From the NCBI RefSeq assembly GCF_003334355.1, contig NZ_QOWP01000001.1: 64,000 nt of DNA; one strand, given 5' to 3'. Below are positions 1 to 44,827 of the stretch, in pieces. Origin of the DNA: Escherichia coli. GTDB lineage: Bacteria > Pseudomonadota > Gammaproteobacteria > Enterobacterales > Enterobacteriaceae. The translations under genes were made by a program, and so were the position numbers. The notes under the pieces were generated by a model, which worked only from the letters and a program-made list of their open reading frames with translations, had not been told where the DNA came from and ran no database searches. Position 1 is the first letter of the stretch; every line of letters starts with the position of its first letter.

Positions 1-578
1 ATCATCAGCGACCCCATTGAAGACTGGTGCATGGTCGGCAGCAGCGCACCGAGCGCGATGATGAAGAACATCACCTTGTTTAGTCGCTGTAGCGACACCT
101 TCCACCCCAGACGTTCAAACAGTGCCGGAGCAAACTCCAGTGCCATCACGCCGATATAGATGGTCATACAGACCGCCGTCTCGAACAGTACCGAGTTCAC
201 GTTGAAGTGACCCGGAATGTAGAAGTACGGCAGGTTCCAGTAGCGACCCACGTCGATAGTGATCGACAAGCCACCCAGTGAGTAACCAAACAGACTCGCC
301 AACAGCGCCGGACGCACCAGCGGATGGTATTGCCCACGGTTAAAGACGTATACCGCCCACGCCAGCGCCCAGCCGCCACAGGCAAAGCCGGTGCCAATCA
401 GCAGGTCAAACGCGATCCACACGCCCCACGGGAAGCCGCCGTTCAGGTCAGAGACAGAGCCCAGACCGAACACCAGACGCTTCACAATCAGGAGCATACA
501 GATGACGATTAACGGTCCAAAAATCATGACCGGTTTACTGATGATTTTGCCGCCCAGCGGTTGTGGATCATGACTCAT
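1..578 (-). CDS. hybB: Hydrogenase-2 membrane cytochrome b subunit HybB, N-terminal part (gene continues past window start)
   Basis: Minus-strand ATG at 578..576 followed by codons for S-H-D, matching the remembered HybB N-terminus MSHD...; lies directly downstream of hybA in the hyb operon; absent from the ORF track because it runs off the window edge. Only the first four codons were translated by hand. Confidence 0.75.
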
Positions 579-1554
579 GATCGTCTCCTCCGTCGTGATG
601 GTCGTTTTTGGTGTTGCGACGAACCAGCACGGTTAAGCCCGCCAGCACAGCCAGTGGTAGCATCATGCCTTTATACAGGGTGTGTTGAATATTTTCGGAA
701 CGCGCACCGGTAGAAAGATCGTCCAGTTTCGGCAGGTCGAGATTTTCATAAGGCACACCCGTCAGTACCAGAACCTGAGTACCGCCGCCCTCTTTCTCGC
801 CGTACAGATGCGGATAATATTTCGGCACCGTATGCAGGTAAGTGTCGCCAGATTTCAGCGTCTGACGCGGATAGTGGTATTCGCTGCCAGGCTTCAGCGC
901 CAGACGTTTTTTCGCCTCCGCCATCAGCTCTTCACGCGTACCGAAAATCACCGCGCCCGCCGGGCACACTTCTACGCAGCCAGGTAGACCGCCTTTATCG
1001 AGACGTTCCACACCTTTCTGGTTGCACAGCTCGCACTTATGCAGCGCACCAAACGGGTTGTTGTAGTCGTACTTCGGCACGTTGTACGGACAGGCGACCA
1101 TGCAGTAACGGCAGCCGGTGCACACGTCTTTGTCGTAATGGACAATGCCGGTTTTCGGATCTTTTTTCAGTGCAGAGACCGGGCACACAGAGACACAGTT
1201 CGGATCGACGCAGTGCATACACTGTTTCTTAATGTACGCGTAGCCGTTCTCCTCCTGGTCTTTGTTGACCCCTGTGCCGCTGGTCCACACCTGAATGATG
1301 TTATTGGTATACGGCGACAGTTTGTCGTTGTTCGACCAGGTCTGTTCCCCTTGCGGGTTACGTTCAGGGAAGTTGATATCCTGACACTTGGTGACGCAAG
1401 CCTGGCAGCCTACGCACAAGGTCGAGTCGTACAACATCCCCAGCGATCCCGGAATTGGCGGGCGGTTTTCAGCAGCCGCATGACTGACAGACGGCAGCGC
1501 GCCCGTCAGCAATGCCCCGCAGGAGGCTGCTTTAATAAAATTACGTCTGTTCAC
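568..1554 (-). CDS. hybA: Hydrogenase-2 ferredoxin-type electron-transfer subunit HybA
   Basis: 328-aa ORF with GTG start; N-terminus [11 protein letters not shown] with Tat-like RR motif; several CxxCxxCxxxCP iron-sulfur motifs visible ([33 protein letters not shown]). Confidence 0.95.
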
Positions 1555-1556
1555 GG

Positions 1557-2675
1557 TTATTCTCCCCGTGAGTCAGCGTTATCTTTCTTTTGCTGACGAC
1601 CCAGTTCACGCACCGCCATCACGCTGACACCGGCAACGAGCCCAACCACACCGCCGAGCAAACCAATAGCGCCTGCAGAGACGTTGCCGCCCTCTTTAGC
1701 GTTAACATCCGGTTTCTGTGAACGCGGAGTCTGATTTTCGACGTTGGCAAGCTGATGGATGCCTTTATGGAAGCCGATACCTTCTTCGTTACAGCCATAG
1801 CACGGGTGACCAATCGCCACCGGCCACACACCGCCAACATCGCAGAATTGCAGCGTTGAGCAGTTGCCATAAGTTTCTGGCCCTTTACAGCCGAGGTGGT
1901 ACAGGCACCAGCCTTCGCGGTGGCCTTCATCACCGAACTCTTTGGCAAAACGACCAGCATCGAAGTGCGGGCGACGTTCGCAGTGTTCGTGAATCAGACG
2001 GCCATAGGCGAAGGTCGGACGGTTTTTGTCATCCAGTTTCGGCGGTTTGCCGTAAGTGATGATGTGCGCAACGGTCGCGAGGAAGTTGTGCGGGTTCGGC
2101 GGGCAGCCCGGAATATTGATAACGGTTTTGCCTGGCAGAACTTCTTGCAGGCTGACTGCGCCAGTTGGGTTAACTCCAGCTGCGGCAACACCGCCCCACG
2201 CAGAGCAGGAACCGATAGCGATAATCGCTGCTGCGCCTTCTGCCGCTTTGCGGATGTGATCCACAATCGGCTCACCAGCAACCATGCAATAAATACCGTT
2301 ATCTTTTAATGGGATGGAACCATCCACAACCAACACATACTGCCCTTTGTACTTCTCAAGTGCGTTATGTTTGTTCTCTTCGACCTGATGACCGAAGGCG
2401 GCGGAAAGCACTTCGTGATACTCCAGAGAGATAGTCTCCAGCACGAGGTTTTCTACCGTTGGATGCGTTGCACGAAGCAGAGATTCCGTACAACCGGTGC
2501 ACTCCTGCGCGCCAATCCAGATAACTGGCGGACGCTGCGGGTTAGTAACCGATTCGGCCATCTCTGCAGCGGCTTTGCTACTTAACCCCATGGTGGCGGC
2601 TAATGCTGCACAAAGCTTCATGAAATCACGACGGTTAATGCCGTGAGAATGGATGAGGGTGTTATCTCCAGTCAT
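1557..2675 (-). CDS. hybO: Hydrogenase-2 small subunit HybO
   Basis: 372-aa ORF; N-terminus [27 protein letters not shown] (Tat signal); length and sequence match remembered HybO; sits 2 bp upstream of hybA. Confidence 0.95.
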
Positions 2676-2863: not shown

Positions 2864-3151
2864 TCAATTTTCGAGGCGATAACCGGCCATAAAAAAGCGC
2901 AACGTAGAACAGGAATTATTCTCACGAAAGAAATCCATTACCATCTCTTTATCCAGTCCATAGCGGCGCGTCAGAATACCCGCTTCCCAGGCGCTAAGCT
3001 GGCGATCTCCGGTCTTTTCGTACATCCGGTGTGAGTAGCCTAATACAAAACCGCGTTTATAATCGGCACAGAATTTTGTCACATTAACCGCACTGTCGGC
3101 ATGCGTTGCTTTTAATCCCGCCATTAAGCCTTTACCAAAATGGTTATTCAT
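2864..3151 (-). CDS. yghW: Small conserved protein YghW (function unknown)
   Basis: 95-aa [30 protein letters not shown]...; length and position upstream of the hyb operon match remembered E. coli YghW. Confidence 0.8.
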
Positions 3152-3269
3152 CGTTCACCTCATTCGCTATATATCACCATATATAGCGATATTTTAGGCA
3201 AAGAACGACTTTTGCGCACGCTATTTTTTCATGCTTGTTTAAGACGTAATCCAGTAAGAGATAAACCTA

Positions 3270-4157
3270 TCAGGAGAGATATTTATCGAACCATTTCAGT
3301 GTCCTTTGCCAGGCAAGATCGGCGGCAGATTTGTCATAACGGGGCGTGGAATCATTATGGAATCCGTGATTAACCCCCGGATAGATATACGCCTCATAAA
3401 CCTTATTATTGGCTTTCAACGCCGCCTCGTAAGCAGGCCAGCCCTCGTTGATTCGGGTGTCCAGTTCCGCGAAGTGGAGTAGTAAAGGCGCTTCAATCTT
3501 CGCCACATCGGCAGTGGGTGCCTGACGACCATAAAACGGCACCGCGCAGGCCAGTTCCGGATACGCGACAGCCGCCGCGTTCGATACGCCACCGCCATAG
3601 CAAAATCCGGTAATACCCACTTTGCCTGCCGCTTGCGGATAGCGTTGCATAAACTCAATTGCGGCAAAGAAATCATTCATCAGTTTGGTTGGATCAACCT
3701 GCTGTTGCAGCTCACGACCTTTATCATCATTTCCCGGATAACCTCCAACGGAACTTAAGCCGTCAGGTGCCAGGGCGATATACCCCGCCTTCGCCACTCG
3801 CCGTGCCACATCTTCGATATACGGATTCAGTCCACGATTCTCATGCACCACCACCACGGCTGGCGTTTTGCCGCTCATTTTTGCGGGTTTCACCAGATAA
3901 CCCCGTACCTCGCCGTGACCATTTGGCGAAGGATACGTGATGTACTCAGCAACAATCTCCGGGTCGGTAAACTCTACCTGAGTCGCCAGCGCATAATTTG
4001 GCTTGAGCAAATCAAACAACGCTAATGCCGTCATCCCGCCCACCGCATACTTCGCCGCAAGGTTGAGGAACTCACGTTTCGAGATTTTCCCGTGAGCGTA
4101 ATAGTCGTAGTAATCCAACAACTCTTGTGGGAAATCTTTGGCGGTTAAACGCGGCAT
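3270..4157 (-). CDS. yghX: Dienelactone hydrolase family protein (YghX-like), uninterrupted frame
   Basis: Continuous ORF; chosen start is the ATG at 4157 (MPRLTAKDF...) preceded by GAGGAG about 7 nt upstream; alpha/beta-hydrolase-like GxCxG motif (GFCYGG) and HGF near the C-terminus. Confidence 0.8.
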   Translation of the reverse strand: MPRLTAKDFPQELLDYYDYYAHGKISKREFLNLAAKYAVGGMTALALFDLLKPNYALATQVEFTDPEIVAEYITYPSPNGHGEVRGYLVKPAKMSGKTPAVVVVHENRGLNPYIEDVARRVAKAGYIALAPDGLSSVGGYPGNDDKGRELQQQVDPTKLMNDFFAAIEFMQRYPQAAGKVGITGFCYGGGVSNAAAVAYPELACAVPFYGRQAPTADVAKIEAPLLLHFAELDTRINEGWPAYEAALKANNKVYEAYIYPGVNHGFHNDSTPRYDKSAADLAWQRTLKWFDKYLS

Positions 4158-4313
4158 CGTTGCACTCCTCAACTGGTGTTTTTTTAAGCAAAGCATAAGC
4201 ACGTGTTTTTGCCCAGTTTTTCGTCACTCTGTGAGCCAGACTACGGGATACGCGCTGGCGAATCGCTAAACTAGAAACATTGTTTCGAAATTGAACGGTG
4301 GAAAGGAGAGGTC

Positions 4314-5354
4314 ATGGTCTGGTTAGCGAATCCCGAACGTTACGGGCAGATGCAATACCGCTATTGCGGAAAAAGCGGTTTACGCCTGCCCGCGTTATCG
4401 CTCGGTTTATGGCACAATTTCGGTCACGTTAACGCGCTGGAATCACAGCGTGCGATCCTGCGTAAAGCGTTTGATTTGGGCATTACGCACTTTGATTTAG
4501 CCAACAATTACGGGCCGCCTCCAGGAAGCGCAGAAGAGAACTTTGGTCGCCTGCTGCGGGAGGATTTTGCCGCTTATCGCGATGAACTGATTATCTCTAC
4601 CAAGGCTGGCTACGATATGTGGCCCGGCCCTTACGGCTCTGGCGGTTCACGTAAATACCTGCTCGCCAGCCTCGACCAAAGCCTGAAGCGTATGGGGCTT
4701 GAGTATGTCGATATCTTTTACTCTCATCGCGTCGATGAAAATACGCCGATGGAAGAAACCGCCTCTGCGCTGGCTCATGCGGTACAAAGCGGTAAGGCGC
4801 TGTATGTCGGGATCTCCTCTTACTCGCCAGAGCGGACGCAAAAAATGGTCGAGTTGCTGCACGAGTGGAAAATTCCGCTTTTAATTCATCAACCTTCGTA
4901 CAATTTACTGAACCGCTGGGTGGATAAAAGCGGCCTGCTGGATACCCTGCAAAATAACGGCGTGGGCTGTATTGCCTTTACTCCTCTGGCTCAGGGATTG
5001 CTGACCGGAAAATATCTCAACGGCATTCCTGAAGATTCACGGATGCATCGTGAAGGGAATAAAGTTCGTGGCCTGACGCCGAAAATGCTCACCGAAGCCA
5101 ACCTCAACAGCCTGCGCTTATTGAATGAAATGGCACAGCAGCGTGGACAATCAATGGCGCAAATGGCGTTAAGCTGGTTGCTGAAAGATGATCGCGTGAC
5201 GTCGGTATTGATTGGTGCCAGCCGTGCAGAGCAACTTGAGGAGAACGTGCAGGCGCTGAATAATCTGACATTTAGCACCGAGGAGCTGGCGCAGATTGAT
5301 CAGCATATCGCCGATGGCGAGCTGAATCTGTGGCAGGCGTCTTCCGATAAATGA
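4314..5354 (+). CDS. gpr: L-glyceraldehyde 3-phosphate reductase (aldo-keto reductase)
   Basis: 346-aa ORF MVWLANPERYGQMQYRYCGKSGLRLPALSLGLW...; matches remembered Gpr/YghZ; GGAAAGGAGAGG Shine-Dalgarno upstream. Confidence 0.9.
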   Translation: MVWLANPERYGQMQYRYCGKSGLRLPALSLGLWHNFGHVNALESQRAILRKAFDLGITHFDLANNYGPPPGSAEENFGRLLREDFAAYRDELIISTKAGYDMWPGPYGSGGSRKYLLASLDQSLKRMGLEYVDIFYSHRVDENTPMEETASALAHAVQSGKALYVGISSYSPERTQKMVELLHEWKIPLLIHQPSYNLLNRWVDKSGLLDTLQNNGVGCIAFTPLAQGLLTGKYLNGIPEDSRMHREGNKVRGLTPKMLTEANLNSLRLLNEMAQQRGQSMAQMALSWLLKDDRVTSVLIGASRAEQLEENVQALNNLTFSTEELAQIDQHIADGELNLWQASSDK

Positions 5355-7012: not shown

Positions 7013-7113
7013 TTACCTGATGTGGCGAAAACGCCTTATCCGCCTACAAACGCATGAAGATTCAACATGTTGCAATAGATTTTGTAGGCCTGATGAGCGT
7101 AGCGCATCAGGCA
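7013..7113. repeat. REP/BIME-type extragenic palindromic repeats
   Basis: Two REP-like palindromic units (..GCGAAAACGCCTTATCCGCCTAC.. and GTAGGCCTGATGAGCGTAGCGCATCAGGC) in the yghA-exbD gap, resembling the REP consensus GCCGGATGCGGCG...CCTTATCCGGCCTAC. Confidence 0.7.
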
Positions 7114-7553: not shown

Positions 7554-8288
7554 TTATCCTGCGCGTAATTTTTGTGCGACACGAACCGGATGCGCAGCGG
7601 CGCTGGCTTCCAGATCCAGGTCACGGCTTTGCAGCAACAATACCTGCGCTGCAACATCACCCAGCATCGCTTTAAAGCCGCCAATCTGGCGTGCAAATAC
7701 GTTATAGATAACGACCGCAGGAATCGCTGCCACGAGGCCGATTGCCGTTGCTAACAGAGCTTCTGCGATACCCGGCGCAACGACTGCCAGGTTAGTGGTC
7801 TGCGTTTGCGCGATACCAATAAAGCTGTTCATGATGCCCCAGACCGTACCAAACAGACCAACGAACGGAGAAATCGCGCCGATGGTTGCCAGATAGCCGT
7901 TACCGCGGCCCATTTGACGACCCACTGCGGCGACCCGACGCTCCAGACGGAAGCTGGTACGTTCTTTAATACCTTCGTTATCGTCGCTGCCTTCTGACAG
8001 TTCCAGCTCATTCTGCGCTTCATTGAGCAAATGCAGGCTTAAGCTTTTGCTACCAAAATCAGCGGCGATATCGTTGGCCTGGTTTAAGGAACGCGCTTCA
8101 GCCAGCAGTTGCTGCTCGCGCTTAAGGCGACGCTTCTGATTGAAGAACTCTACGCTCTTACTGAAGAAGATTGCCCAGGTGACTACGGAGGCCAAAATAA
8201 GCCCAATCATCACGCACTTAACGACAATATCGGCGTGCTGATACATACCCCAGACGGAAAGGTCCGTCTGCATTAAATTATTACCCAC
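7554..8288 (-). CDS. exbB: TonB-system energizer ExbB
   Basis: 244-aa ORF (GTG start) MGNNLMQTDLSVWGMYQHADIVVKCVMIGL...; immediately upstream of exbD. Confidence 0.95.
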   Translation of the reverse strand: MGNNLMQTDLSVWGMYQHADIVVKCVMIGLILASVVTWAIFFSKSVEFFNQKRRLKREQQLLAEARSLNQANDIAADFGSKSLSLHLLNEAQNELELSEGSDDNEGIKERTSFRLERRVAAVGRQMGRGNGYLATIGAISPFVGLFGTVWGIMNSFIGIAQTQTTNLAVVAPGIAEALLATAIGLVAAIPAVVIYNVFARQIGGFKAMLGDVAAQVLLLQSRDLDLEASAAAHPVRVAQKLRAG

Positions 8289-42319: not shown

Positions 42320-44827
42320 GTGGATCAGATGTATAAAAAATTAAAATTAACCACAATAAGCGAATTGATTAAAAATATTTATTGTTCATTATCCGTTATC
42401 ATCATTGGTTGTGCGTCAGCTTATGCCGTTGAATTCAACAAAGATTTAATCGAAGCCGAAGATCGTGAAAACGTTAACCTTTCCCAATTTGAAACTGATG
42501 GCCAATTACCCGTCGGCAAATATTCACTAAGCACTCTGATTAATAATAAGAGGACGCCAATCCACCTTGACCTCCAATGGGTATTAATTGATAACCTAAC
42601 TGCAGTTTGCGTGACACCAGAGCAATTAACATTATTAGGCTTTACTGATGAGATTATTGAAGAGGCTCAGCAAAACCTGATCGATGGTTGTTACCCTATC
42701 GAAAAAGAAAAACAAATTACAACTTATCTCGATAAAGGGAAAATGCAATTATCCATATCTGCACCTCAGGCATGGTTAAAATACAAAGATGCAAACTGGA
42801 CGCCTCCTGAACTTTGGGATCATGGTATTGCTGGGGCATTTCTTGACTACAATTTATATGCCTCTCATTATGCACCACATCAGGGCGATAATTCACAAAA
42901 TATAAGTTCCTATGGGCAGGCTGGGGTTAATCTTGGGGCCTGGCGCCTGCGTACTGATTACCAGTACGATCAGTCATTTAACAATGGCAAAAGCCAGGCG
43001 AACAACCTGGATTTTCCGCGTATTTATTTGTTTCGCCCAATCCCAGCAATTAATGCAAAACTAACTATAGGTCAATACGATACTGAATCCTCTATTTTCG
43101 ACTCTTTCCATTTTTCTGGCGTTTCGTTGAAAAGCGATGAGAATATGTTGCCGCCTGATCTACGTGGTTACGCACCGCAAATCACGGGTGTTGCACAAAC
43201 GAATGCAAAGGTCACTGTCTCACAGAACAACCGTATTATTTATCAAGAAAACGTTCCTCCAGGCCCATTTTCTATTACCAATTTATTCAATACATTACAG
43301 GGGCAACTGGACGTCAAGGTTGAAGAAGAGGACGGGCGCGTCACGCAATGGCAAGTTGCATCTAATAGCATTCCTTATCTGACGCGTAAAGGGCAGATTC
43401 GCTACACTACTGCAATGGGGAAACCGACCAGCGTTGGCGGCGATTCCTTACAACAGCCCTTCTTCTGGACCGGTGAATTCTCATGGGGTTGGCTGAACAA
43501 TGTATCCCTGTATGGTGGTTCAGTATTAACAAACCGTGATTATCAATCCCTGGCTACCGGAGTTGGTTTTAACCTTAACTCGTTGGGCTCATTATCCTTT
43601 GATGTCACGCGATCTGATGCTCAGTTACATAATCAGAATAAAGAAACGGGTTATAGCTACCGTGCTAACTATTCAAAACGTTTTGAATCTACCGGTAGCC
43701 AGCTCACTTTCGCTGGCTACCGTTTCTCTGATAAAAACTTTGTGTCGATGAATGAATATATCAATGACACTAACCATTACACGAATTATCAGAATGAAAA
43801 AGAGAGTTATATTGTCACGTTTAACCAGTATCTTGAATCATTGAGATTAAATACATACGTAAGTCTGGCTCGTAATACTTACTGGGACGCCAGCAGTAAT
43901 GTGAATTATTCATTATCACTTAGCCGCGATTTTGATATCGGCCCATTAAAAAACGTATCCACCTCACTAACATTTAGCCGAATAAACTGGGAAGATGACA
44001 ACCAGGATCAACTGTACCTAAATATTTCAATTCCCTGGGGAACCAGTAGAACATTGAGCTATGGTATGCAACGAAATCAGGATAACAACATTTCGCATAC
44101 TGCTTCGTGGTATGACTCTTCCGATCGAAATAATTCCTGGAGCGTTTCTGCTTCAGGCGACAATGACGAATTTAAAGATATGGAGGCGTCACTGCGCGCC
44201 AGTTATCAGCATAATACCGAGAACGGTCGTCTCTATCTCTCCGGTACATCACAGCGGGATAGCTACTATTCTCTGAATGCCAGTTGGAACGGTTCATTCA
44301 CTGCAACTCGCCACGGCGCCGCTTTCCATGACTATAGTGGTAGTGCTGACTCGCGTTTTATGATCGACGCAGACGGCGCTGAAGATATTCCGTTGAATAA
44401 TAAACGCGCGGTAACTAATCGGTATGGCATCGGAGTTATTCCATCAGTCAGCAGTTACATAACAACATCATTAAGCGTTGATACCCGAAATCTTCCAGAA
44501 AATGTGGATATCGAAAACTCGGTTATCACCACCACCTTAACCGAAGGTGCTATTGGCTACGCCAAACTTGATACCCGCAAGGGCTATCAAATCATGGGGG
44601 TTATTCGCCTGGCAGATGGTAGTCACCCACCACTGGGGATTAGCGTAAAAGATGAAACCAGCCACAAAGAATTAGGACTTGTTGCTGATGGCGGCTTTGT
44701 ATACCTCAACGGCATTCAGGATGACAGCAAACTTACTTTACGCTGGGGTGACAAATCTTGCTTTATTCAACCACCCAAGAGCAGCAACTTAACCACCGGA
44801 ACGGTGATTTTACCGTGTATTAGCTAA
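42320..44827 (+). CDS. yqiG: Fimbrial outer-membrane usher YqiG, uninterrupted
   Basis: 835-aa ORF from a GTG (first ATG at 42329); usher-sized with usher-like conserved region; continuous frame with no inserted element. Confidence 0.88.
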   Translation: MDQMYKKLKLTTISELIKNIYCSLSVIIIGCASAYAVEFNKDLIEAEDRENVNLSQFETDGQLPVGKYSLSTLINNKRTPIHLDLQWVLIDNLTAVCVTPEQLTLLGFTDEIIEEAQQNLIDGCYPIEKEKQITTYLDKGKMQLSISAPQAWLKYKDANWTPPELWDHGIAGAFLDYNLYASHYAPHQGDNSQNISSYGQAGVNLGAWRLRTDYQYDQSFNNGKSQANNLDFPRIYLFRPIPAINAKLTIGQYDTESSIFDSFHFSGVSLKSDENMLPPDLRGYAPQITGVAQTNAKVTVSQNNRIIYQENVPPGPFSITNLFNTLQGQLDVKVEEEDGRVTQWQVASNSIPYLTRKGQIRYTTAMGKPTSVGGDSLQQPFFWTGEFSWGWLNNVSLYGGSVLTNRDYQSLATGVGFNLNSLGSLSFDVTRSDAQLHNQNKETGYSYRANYSKRFESTGSQLTFAGYRFSDKNFVSMNEYINDTNHYTNYQNEKESYIVTFNQYLESLRLNTYVSLARNTYWDASSNVNYSLSLSRDFDIGPLKNVSTSLTFSRINWEDDNQDQLYLNISIPWGTSRTLSYGMQRNQDNNISHTASWYDSSDRNNSWSVSASGDNDEFKDMEASLRASYQHNTENGRLYLSGTSQRDSYYSLNASWNGSFTATRHGAAFHDYSGSADSRFMIDADGAEDIPLNNKRAVTNRYGIGVIPSVSSYITTSLSVDTRNLPENVDIENSVITTTLTEGAIGYAKLDTRKGYQIMGVIRLADGSHPPLGISVKDETSHKELGLVADGGFVYLNGIQDDSKLTLRWGDKSCFIQPPKSSNLTTGTVILPCIS

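Follow-up and report, generated by a model that had tools for sequence, protein, structure and literature searches.

The yghX gene of Escherichia coli is annotated as a pseudogene in K-12 MG1655 (NC_000913.3; b4658, 3146856-3147691), with a separate gene of 47 aa, yqhI (b4755, 3147597-3147740), annotated at its 5' end. An open yghX frame in another E. coli genome thus raises the questions of which state of the gene is the rule, what kind of protein the open frame would encode, and how the K-12 copy was lost. We addressed them with a stretch of 64,000 nucleotides (assembly GCF_003334355.1, contig NZ_QOWP01000001.1; the window hereafter), in which the frame lies at positions 3270-4157. In our assessment, this frame is very probably an intact, ancestral and selectively maintained yghX that encodes a hydrolase of the dienelactone hydrolase (DLH) fold behind a Tat-like presequence and that has decayed in K-12 in two steps.

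The yghX locus and its ancestral state

The frame is flanked by hybA, hybO and yghW on one side and by gpr, yqhA, yghA, exbD and exbB on the other and is the E. coli yghX locus. It runs on the minus strand from an ATG (4157-4155) to a TAA (3272-3270) without interruption, exactly where the first-pass annotation of the window had placed a continuous ORF of unstated strand. A list of ORFs extends the frame further, to a GTG at 4202 (310 aa); the ATG is the start chosen in the RefSeq annotation of the identical sequence of strain PSS-12 and has been shown experimentally for YqhI of K-12, which shares it with yghX (PMC6001520, PMC11429745). Simple sigma-70 and terminator scans of positions 3100-4400 gave no minus-strand promoter or terminator above shuffle expectation, so that we do not claim a promoter for yghX. 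The features of the gene are listed in Table 1.

The proposal of a full-length protein resembling alpha/beta-hydrolases is borne out by a score of 585.3 bits for the NCBIfam profile NF041440 "YghX family hydrolase" (curated cut-off 460 bits; all 292 profile positions are aligned, with residues 3-294), a full-length match to Pfam DLH PF01738 (E=6e-48; residues 84-294, model positions 1-217 of 217) and 98% identity to PDB entry 4ZV9 over YghX residues 59-294 (E=1e-160). Judged by these matches, a chance ORF can be dismissed. Compared with K-12, the window is collinear from 3143587 onward (98.4-99.3% identity) and has no IS2 in yqiG, where K-12 carries one; over 25 kb it matches commensal/environmental isolates such as PSS-12 and A10 at 100% identity. 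The source is therefore a non-K-12 strain, as had been supposed from the open frame. The intact yghX is itself weak evidence on strain identity, since the intact state is both the majority and the ancestral one.

All of the best 120 database relatives, which come from Citrobacter (including C. koseri), Pseudescherichia, Enterobacter, Kosakonia, Leclercia and metagenomes, have 292-299 aa, both Pfam domains and 85-92% identity. Because these relatives are full-length throughout and carry both domains, the open frame is ancestral; among 5,426 complete E. coli genomes, about 70-78% also have it, so that intact yghX is the ancestral and majority allele and the broken K-12 copy the exception. Comparison with the divergent intact allele Ecol_732 (95.7% nucleotide identity) revealed 37 synonymous and 6 non-synonymous differences, and the resulting dN/dS of 0.044 indicates strong purifying selection on yghX.

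In E. coli at large, yghX is thus no pseudogene. The gene itself, the name of its family and a crystal structure of its product have already been made public, and finding the frame open is correct yet ordinary because this is the norm and K-12 the exception. Worth keeping are the two-step lesion and its spread, the nature of YqhI as a stump, the intact copy of BL21 and a Tat-like presequence that AF2 scores as folded.

Table 1. Features of the yghX locus in the window, with the evidence on which each assignment rests.
Feature	Position	Strand	Evidence or remark
yghX CDS, intact allele	3270..4157	minus	295 codons and TAA stop; RefSeq CDS of the identical PSS-12 sequence
Shine-Dalgarno GAGGAG	4165..4170	minus	7 nt 5' of the yghX ATG; read from the sequence
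Presequence, codons 1-58, probable Tat-type signal peptide	3984..4157	minus	PF23678, family alignment, motif counts, start of 4ZV9
Lys-Arg, codons 27-28, where the family has a twin arginine	4074..4079	minus	Family alignment, motif counts
Ala-Leu-Ala, codons 56-58, predicted signal-peptidase I site	3984..3992	minus	Cleavage predicted after Ala58
Predicted mature DLH-fold catalytic domain, residues 59-295 (237 aa)	3273..3983	minus	Pfam DLH, 4ZV9, AF2 model
Glu106 in H-E-N-R-G	3840..3842	minus	Aligns with DLH Glu36, which controls the thiol and Cys conformation
Cys186, putative catalytic nucleophile in G-F-C-Y-G-G	3600..3602	minus	Aligns with Cys123 of Pseudomonas DLH
Asp233, putative triad acid	3459..3461	minus	Aligns with DLH Asp171; invariant in the family alignment
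His264, putative triad base	3366..3368	minus	Aligns with DLH His202
K-12 lesion 1 site: TA in codon 37, present here, deleted in K-12	4048..4049	minus	Global alignment
K-12 lesion 2 site: one C (of CCAACC) in codon 157, present here, deleted in K-12	3688..3688	minus	Global alignment

Fold and catalytic residues of YghX

The AF2 model of YghX (mean pLDDT 96.6, pTM 0.93) superimposes on 4ZV9 with an rmsd of 1.0 A and a TM of 0.98 and overlays with DLH structures at 2.2-3.3 A. A search for the Ser/Cys-His-Asp triad suggested by the first-pass annotation found it complete as Cys186-Asp233-His264, with Cys and not Ser as the nucleophile by BLASTP alignment to Pseudomonas DLH (29% identity; 1DIN, with an aligned sequence that agrees with the PDB entry at 235 of 236 positions). 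An alignment of 32 full-length homologues (36-68% identity) shows Asp233 to be invariant and Cys186, His264 and His105 to be conserved to at least 90%; Glu106 is either invariant or likewise conserved to at least 90%. Since the triad is complete and the gene is under purifying selection, the earlier reading of YghX as a possibly active enzyme is supported. Such an enzyme would most likely hydrolyze an ester or lactone in the periplasm (see below for its predicted export) by way of a thioester acyl-enzyme on Cys186, with His264 and Asp233 as relay and with Glu106 controlling the thiol of Cys186 like its counterpart Glu36 in Pseudomonas DLH.

The protein of 4ZV9, "EcoDLH", is the YghX of O157:H7 Sakai and thus the product of the same gene. 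It differs by three substitutions in residues 59-294 (V69F, S135N and A177T) and by a construct that starts around residue 60, without the 59 N-terminal residues encoded here, and otherwise shows no difference of substance. Purified EcoDLH was inactive as a phosphotriesterase, the Cys of its active site was modified or oxidised in the crystal, and no native activity or substrate was reported (bioRxiv 10.1101/2025.10.30.685675). The neighborhoods of distant YghX homologues include no conserved partner gene (the contig of one, P0122, spans 2.5 kb, and another, P0126, has GFA, HNH and OYE as neighbors); since they are not conserved, gene context gives no hint at a substrate, and we dropped this route of inference because the neighbors are unrelated. 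As a conserved and probably periplasmic cysteine hydrolase of solved structure, YghX is a tractable orphan enzyme, if an unsurprising one.

The N-terminal presequence and the likely site of action

YghX is probably periplasmic, since its first 58 residues resemble an export signal of the Tat type. They comprise a conserved n-region of 26 residues, the motif S-K-R-E-F-L-N, an A/G/L-rich h-region and the end K-P-N-Y-A-L-A, and residues 1-36 match Pfam PF23678 "YqhI-like" (E=8e-20). In the family consensus, four variable residues separate L-Y-D-x-Y-x-H from R-R-x-F-L, after which come a stretch rich in A/G/L and A-x-A; Arg28 is conserved at 91% and Arg at position 27, Phe30, Tyr20 and His22 at 84% each, and of 32 diverse homologues, 75% have Ala at position 58 and 62% have it at position 56. 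Among distant representatives that match the N-terminal motif pattern, the twin arginine dominates (51 with RR, 13 with KR and one each with HR and RK), and plain RR signals also occur in homologues that lack the n-region motif (e.g., P0155, P0175, P0165, P0198 and P0248). Three further homologues (P0203, P0214 and P0227) combine the n-region and RR with a lipobox (LAAC) and an Ala/Thr/Pro-rich linker of 50-80 residues ahead of the catalytic domain. The n-region motif is kept even there, where the lipobox and the long disordered linker part it from the enzyme.

Measured against the Tat motif S/T-R-R-x-F-L-K, YghX of the window has Lys-Arg instead of two consecutive arginines, like all of the best 120 relatives. 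Its residues Y37-F48 are uncharged and form a weakly hydrophobic h-region that is followed by an AxA c-region, as in Tat signals, with charged Lys36 and Asp49 within the h-region. The most hydrophobic 12 residues score 1.59, compared to 1.76 for HybO and 1.57 for HybA, which are both encoded in the window. The TIGR01409 TAT_signal_seq profile gives no match to YghX of the window and, at a cut-off of 16.7 bits, reaches at the homologous position 16.4, 15.8 and 13.5 bits in the RR homologues P0128, P0137 and P0189, respectively, and 9 bits in P0255. With the Tat signals of HybO, HybA and FtsP/SufI from the same window, the presequence shares a basic motif, F-L/M, an A/G/L-rich h-region and AxA, but it differs from them in having KR rather than RR, in its 26-residue n-region with L-Y-D-x-Y-x-H and in being folded according to AF2, and there is no cofactor known that would account for a need of Tat. 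The Tat system of E. coli accepts lysine in place of the first arginine in SufI and TorA, at slower export, and Salmonella TtrB has a natural KR signal (PMC1182353), though TtrB is an Fe-S subunit of demonstrated Tat dependence, while Tat export of YghX is predicted. When papers on Tat export or a periplasmic location of DLH-family proteins were sought, only genome papers came up, and none dealt with YghX.

Taken together, these features suggest that the YghX family is extracytoplasmic and Tat-targeted, and on balance we lean toward the view that YghX itself is a Tat-exported periplasmic enzyme. Its 295-aa precursor would then consist of the 58-residue Tat-like presequence and a 237-residue alpha/beta hydrolase that folds in the cytoplasm, leaves it in folded form via TatABC and has its presequence cut off after Ala58.

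The main rival to this view is that YghX is cytoplasmic and that residues 1-58 are a permanent three-helix module, e.g., a lid or an oligomerisation element, whose likeness to Tat signals in Enterobacteriaceae is a relic or a coincidence. In its favor, AF2 scores residues 1-60 with a pLDDT of 92-96 as three helices (11-21, 27-37 and 44-51) in a model of high overall pTM, and it does much the same for the presequence of the long-linker homologue P0214 (87-93, with the linker below 50); this confidence is atypical of a cleaved signal peptide. The consistent KR, never RR, of the best 120 homologues, the charges in the h-region and the silence of TIGR01409 point the same way, as do the conservation of L-Y-D-x-Y-x-H at 62-84%, which is odd for a signal peptide, and the soluble behavior of YqhI in K-12 (PMC11429745). 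A structural lid is, however, hard to reconcile with the lipobox Cys and the disordered linkers of 50-80 aa in some homologues, and distant members have textbook RR signals, some of them without the n-region motif. In addition, AxA is conserved at the junction, and the catalytic domain folds and crystallises alone, given that 4ZV9 is a structural-genomics construct without residues 1-59. We therefore regard a cytoplasmic YghX as rather unlikely. Based on the AF2 models, the helices might form a unit that masks the h-region, a docked element resembling a pro-peptide or a permanent domain; when the PDB was searched by fold with the full-length model, no solved DLH structure covered these helices, so that their contacts cannot be read from the search. 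Tat export of YghX being the reading that we prefer, a tentative extension of it is that the N-terminal 58 residues of the YghX family represent a new subtype of Tat presequence in which a conserved, amphipathic n-region (L-Y-D-x-Y-x-H), the RR helix and the h-region fold as a small three-helix unit. Until export, this unit might either shield the hydrophobic core or stay docked to the cysteine hydrolase.

Two other readings concern the enzyme rather than its location. Some databases call YghX homologues "carboxymethylenebutenolidase", and one paper places yghX in the degradation pathways of chlorobenzene, fluorobenzoate and toluene, in keeping with KEGG-style annotation as a genuine dienelactone hydrolase (EC 3.1.1.45) of chloroaromatic or catechol degradation. 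Beyond the Pfam DLH match, YghX indeed shares with ClcD (1DIN, EC 3.1.1.45) the fold (TM 0.85) and equivalents of the Cys-His-Asp triad, of Glu36 and of the carboxylate-binding Arg81 (Arg148). However, the identity between the two proteins is only 25-29%, Arg206 of the second carboxylate-binding site is replaced by Asn268 so that one of the two arginines is missing, and ClcD has no counterpart to the 58-aa presequence. The genes nearby are gpr, yghW, the hyb operon and yqhA and not clc/tfd-type or chlorocatechol/maleylacetate genes, and a probable periplasmic site does not fit a cytoplasmic catabolic pathway. This function is very improbable, and we file YghX, going by its sequence, as a DLH-fold cysteine hydrolase and not under EC 3.1.1.45 because it has only one of the two substrate arginines and lacks a chlorocatechol pathway context. 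Alternatively, the frame may be unexpressed or decaying and merely be without a stop codon so far. Roughly one in four complete E. coli genomes tolerates its loss, the locus has served engineers of K-12 and W3110 as a neutral integration site, and there is no known phenotype. Such a state is nevertheless extremely hard to square with the low dN/dS within E. coli, the full-length identity of 85-92% across enterobacterial genera, the intact catalytic residues and a start that is transcribed and translated even in K-12 (PMC6001520, PMC11429745).

Decay of yghX in K-12 and the origin of YqhI

The first-pass annotation had described K-12 yghX as a disrupted pseudogene, which agrees with its public annotation, and a global alignment of the yghW-gpr interval located the damage as a 2-bp and a 1-bp deletion inside the K-12 gene (Table 1). 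Because the two deletions add up to 3 bp, K-12 regains the reading frame after codon 157, while the intervening 120 codons are read out of frame and contain many stops. Apart from these lesions, the K-12 CDS differs from that of the window by 9 substitutions (8 synonymous and 1 non-synonymous), and putting the three bases back would yield a protein that differs at a single residue (A177T), whose state in the repaired K-12 allele is also found in O157 and in the divergent intact allele. Given so few changes, the inactivation of K-12 yghX is recent.

The distribution of both lesions was determined with allele-specific queries of 50-51 nt in which both flanks of the indel are shorter than the 28-nt megablast word, so that a query cannot seed on the other allele. 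The locus is present in all 5,426 complete E. coli genomes. At the first site (2-bp deletion, codon 37), 1,505 of them are deleted, 3,786 intact and 135 unresolved, and at the second (1-bp deletion, codon 157) the respective numbers are 1,199, 4,222 and 5, with deleted-allele counts that are inflated by laboratory derivatives of K-12. The carriers also include many clinical and animal isolates, and the 1,505 and 1,199 genomes with deletions led us to reject the notion of lesions unique to K-12. An intermediate allele, the K-12 haplotype carrying the 2-bp deletion alone, is found in strain JCC-EE 7, whereas strain 222 has both deletions and an extra SNP; in both, the PGAP label for yghX is "frameshifted". 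We had considered that the excess of about 300 genomes at the first site might consist of rows with one mismatch and rejected this because strain 222 has both deletions and the strain with the 2-bp deletion only is JCC-EE 7. In the simplest history, codon 37 suffered its 2-bp deletion before the 1-bp deletion arose in codon 157 in a sub-lineage, which would have left K-12 with a translated stub of 47 aa, YqhI. The yghX locus would thus be a case of two-step gene decay with an intermediate allele that is still circulating.

In K-12, where the locus likewise lies between yghW and gpr, this stub is all that is made from it. YqhI has been detected by chromosomal SPA tagging with the sequence MPRLTAKDFPQELLDYYDYYAHGKISKREFLNLAAK followed by CGRRDDGISVV (PMC6001520); its first 36 residues are the first 36 residues of YghX in the window, and the 11 further ones are out of frame. 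Both detection by ribosome profiling and induction at low Mg2+ have been reported (PMC6001520, PMC11429745), and YqhI has been studied as a stress-induced small protein, one of 17 that are induced by Mg2+ starvation, in its case independently of PhoQP (PMC11429745). Since YqhI is made from the yghX start in K-12, the promoter and start codon of yghX are active, and we infer that strains with an open frame would make full-length YghX under those conditions. The accessible portions of the two reports contain no statement that YqhI is the N-terminus of YghX: in that of the first, yghX_2 appears only as a flanking gene (PMC6001520), and "yghX" is not found in the text of the other as far as it is available (PMC11429745). 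We propose that YqhI of K-12 should be read as a translated remnant of the YghX presequence that was left by the frameshift, and this may explain the phenotype of a yqhI deletion that the peptide failed to complement (PMC11429745). If the presequence were indeed a new Tat subtype, the low-Mg2+-induced YqhI would be a presequence stump and not a gene of its own. Over a quarter of the complete E. coli genomes that were queried share the frameshift behind YqhI.

In published work, the yghX locus of BL21(DE3) has been used as a "pseudogene" integration site. Since yghX of BL21 is intact, insertions there knock out a conserved gene. Another route to loss is seen in strain IAL7255, where only a short 3' remnant of yghX is found, adjoining IS1 in an unrelated genomic context.

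Decay, loss and retention of yghX

The yghX allele of strain JCC-EE 7, an intermediate decay allele, carries only the 2-bp deletion of the two lesions known from K-12. It retains an open frame of 254 codons from Met42 to the normal stop, and re-initiation past the YqhI stop could in principle yield a hypothetical cytoplasmic enzyme devoid of the signal. Strain IAL7255 lost the gene by an independent route: yghX is reduced to a short 3' remnant that adjoins an IS1 element, and its genomic surroundings (mdtM, yjiN) are different. E. coli BL21 harbors an intact yghX of 888 nt with no pseudogene flag, even though engineering work in BL21(DE3) refers to the "pseudogene yghX locus" as its gene insertion site (PMC12617950).

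The window strain also has an intact version of a second K-12 pseudogene, given that its fimbrial usher gene yqiG forms one open frame and lacks the IS2 that resides in the K-12 copy.

Coordinates of features in the window and in the compared E. coli loci
Feature	Sequence	Coordinates	Strand	Description
Palindrome	window	3164-3189		perfect, 11-bp stem, TCGCTATATATCACCATATATAGCGA
YqhI	K-12 locus (L001)	7598-7741		47 aa
Part matching YqhI	window	4050-4157		presequence residues 1-36
yghX	BL21 locus (L011, NZ_CP060121.1)	1117-2004		intact
yghX	JCC-EE 7 locus (L005)	393-1278		2-bp deletion only
yghX remnant	IAL7255 locus (L004)	4101-4196		3' end
Overlap of BLAST pieces	window	7030-7113		window versus K-12
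yqiG	window	42320-44827	+	fimbrial usher gene; single open frame, 835 codons
IS2 junction in yqiG	window	near 42391-42399		IS2 missing
IS2 of yqiG	K-12	3186096-3187426		
sibD/ibsD and sibE/ibsE repeats	window	49511-50241		two segments of ca. 356 bp

The presequence and its relatives

The K-12 small protein YqhI, which is induced by low Mg2+ (PMC11429745), consists of YghX presequence residues 1-36 followed by 11 frameshifted residues. The Pfam family PF23678 ("YqhI-like") therefore describes the n-region and twin-arginine-motif part of this presequence. Three metagenomic homologues of the YghX family (P0203, P0214 and P0227) keep both the n-region motif and the RR, after which they display a lipobox (LAAC), a linker of 50-80 aa rich in Ala, Thr and Pro, and then the catalytic domain. 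The linker has an AF2 pLDDT below 50, as modelled for P0214. These proteins look like a Tat-dependent lipoprotein form of the YghX-family enzyme.

Intergenic palindrome and repeats in the window

The palindrome occupies part of the gap that separates the stop of yghX from the start of yghW and is not followed by a T-run on the minus strand, so that it does not constitute a classic yghX terminator. It may be an operator or a piece of the yghW promoter region; the yghW promoter is listed as constitutive (PMC3946193).

Across window positions 1-25000, most close genomes are ca. 113 bp longer and align in two pieces, while strain A10 is collinear. Together with the overlapping BLAST pieces, this pattern points to a small indel close to exbD that is associated with a repeat. 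Further downstream, two segments, each also matching the other's K-12 counterpart at ca. 90% identity, are the equivalents of two toxin-antisense RNA repeats that K-12 carries in tandem, sibD/ibsD and sibE/ibsE.
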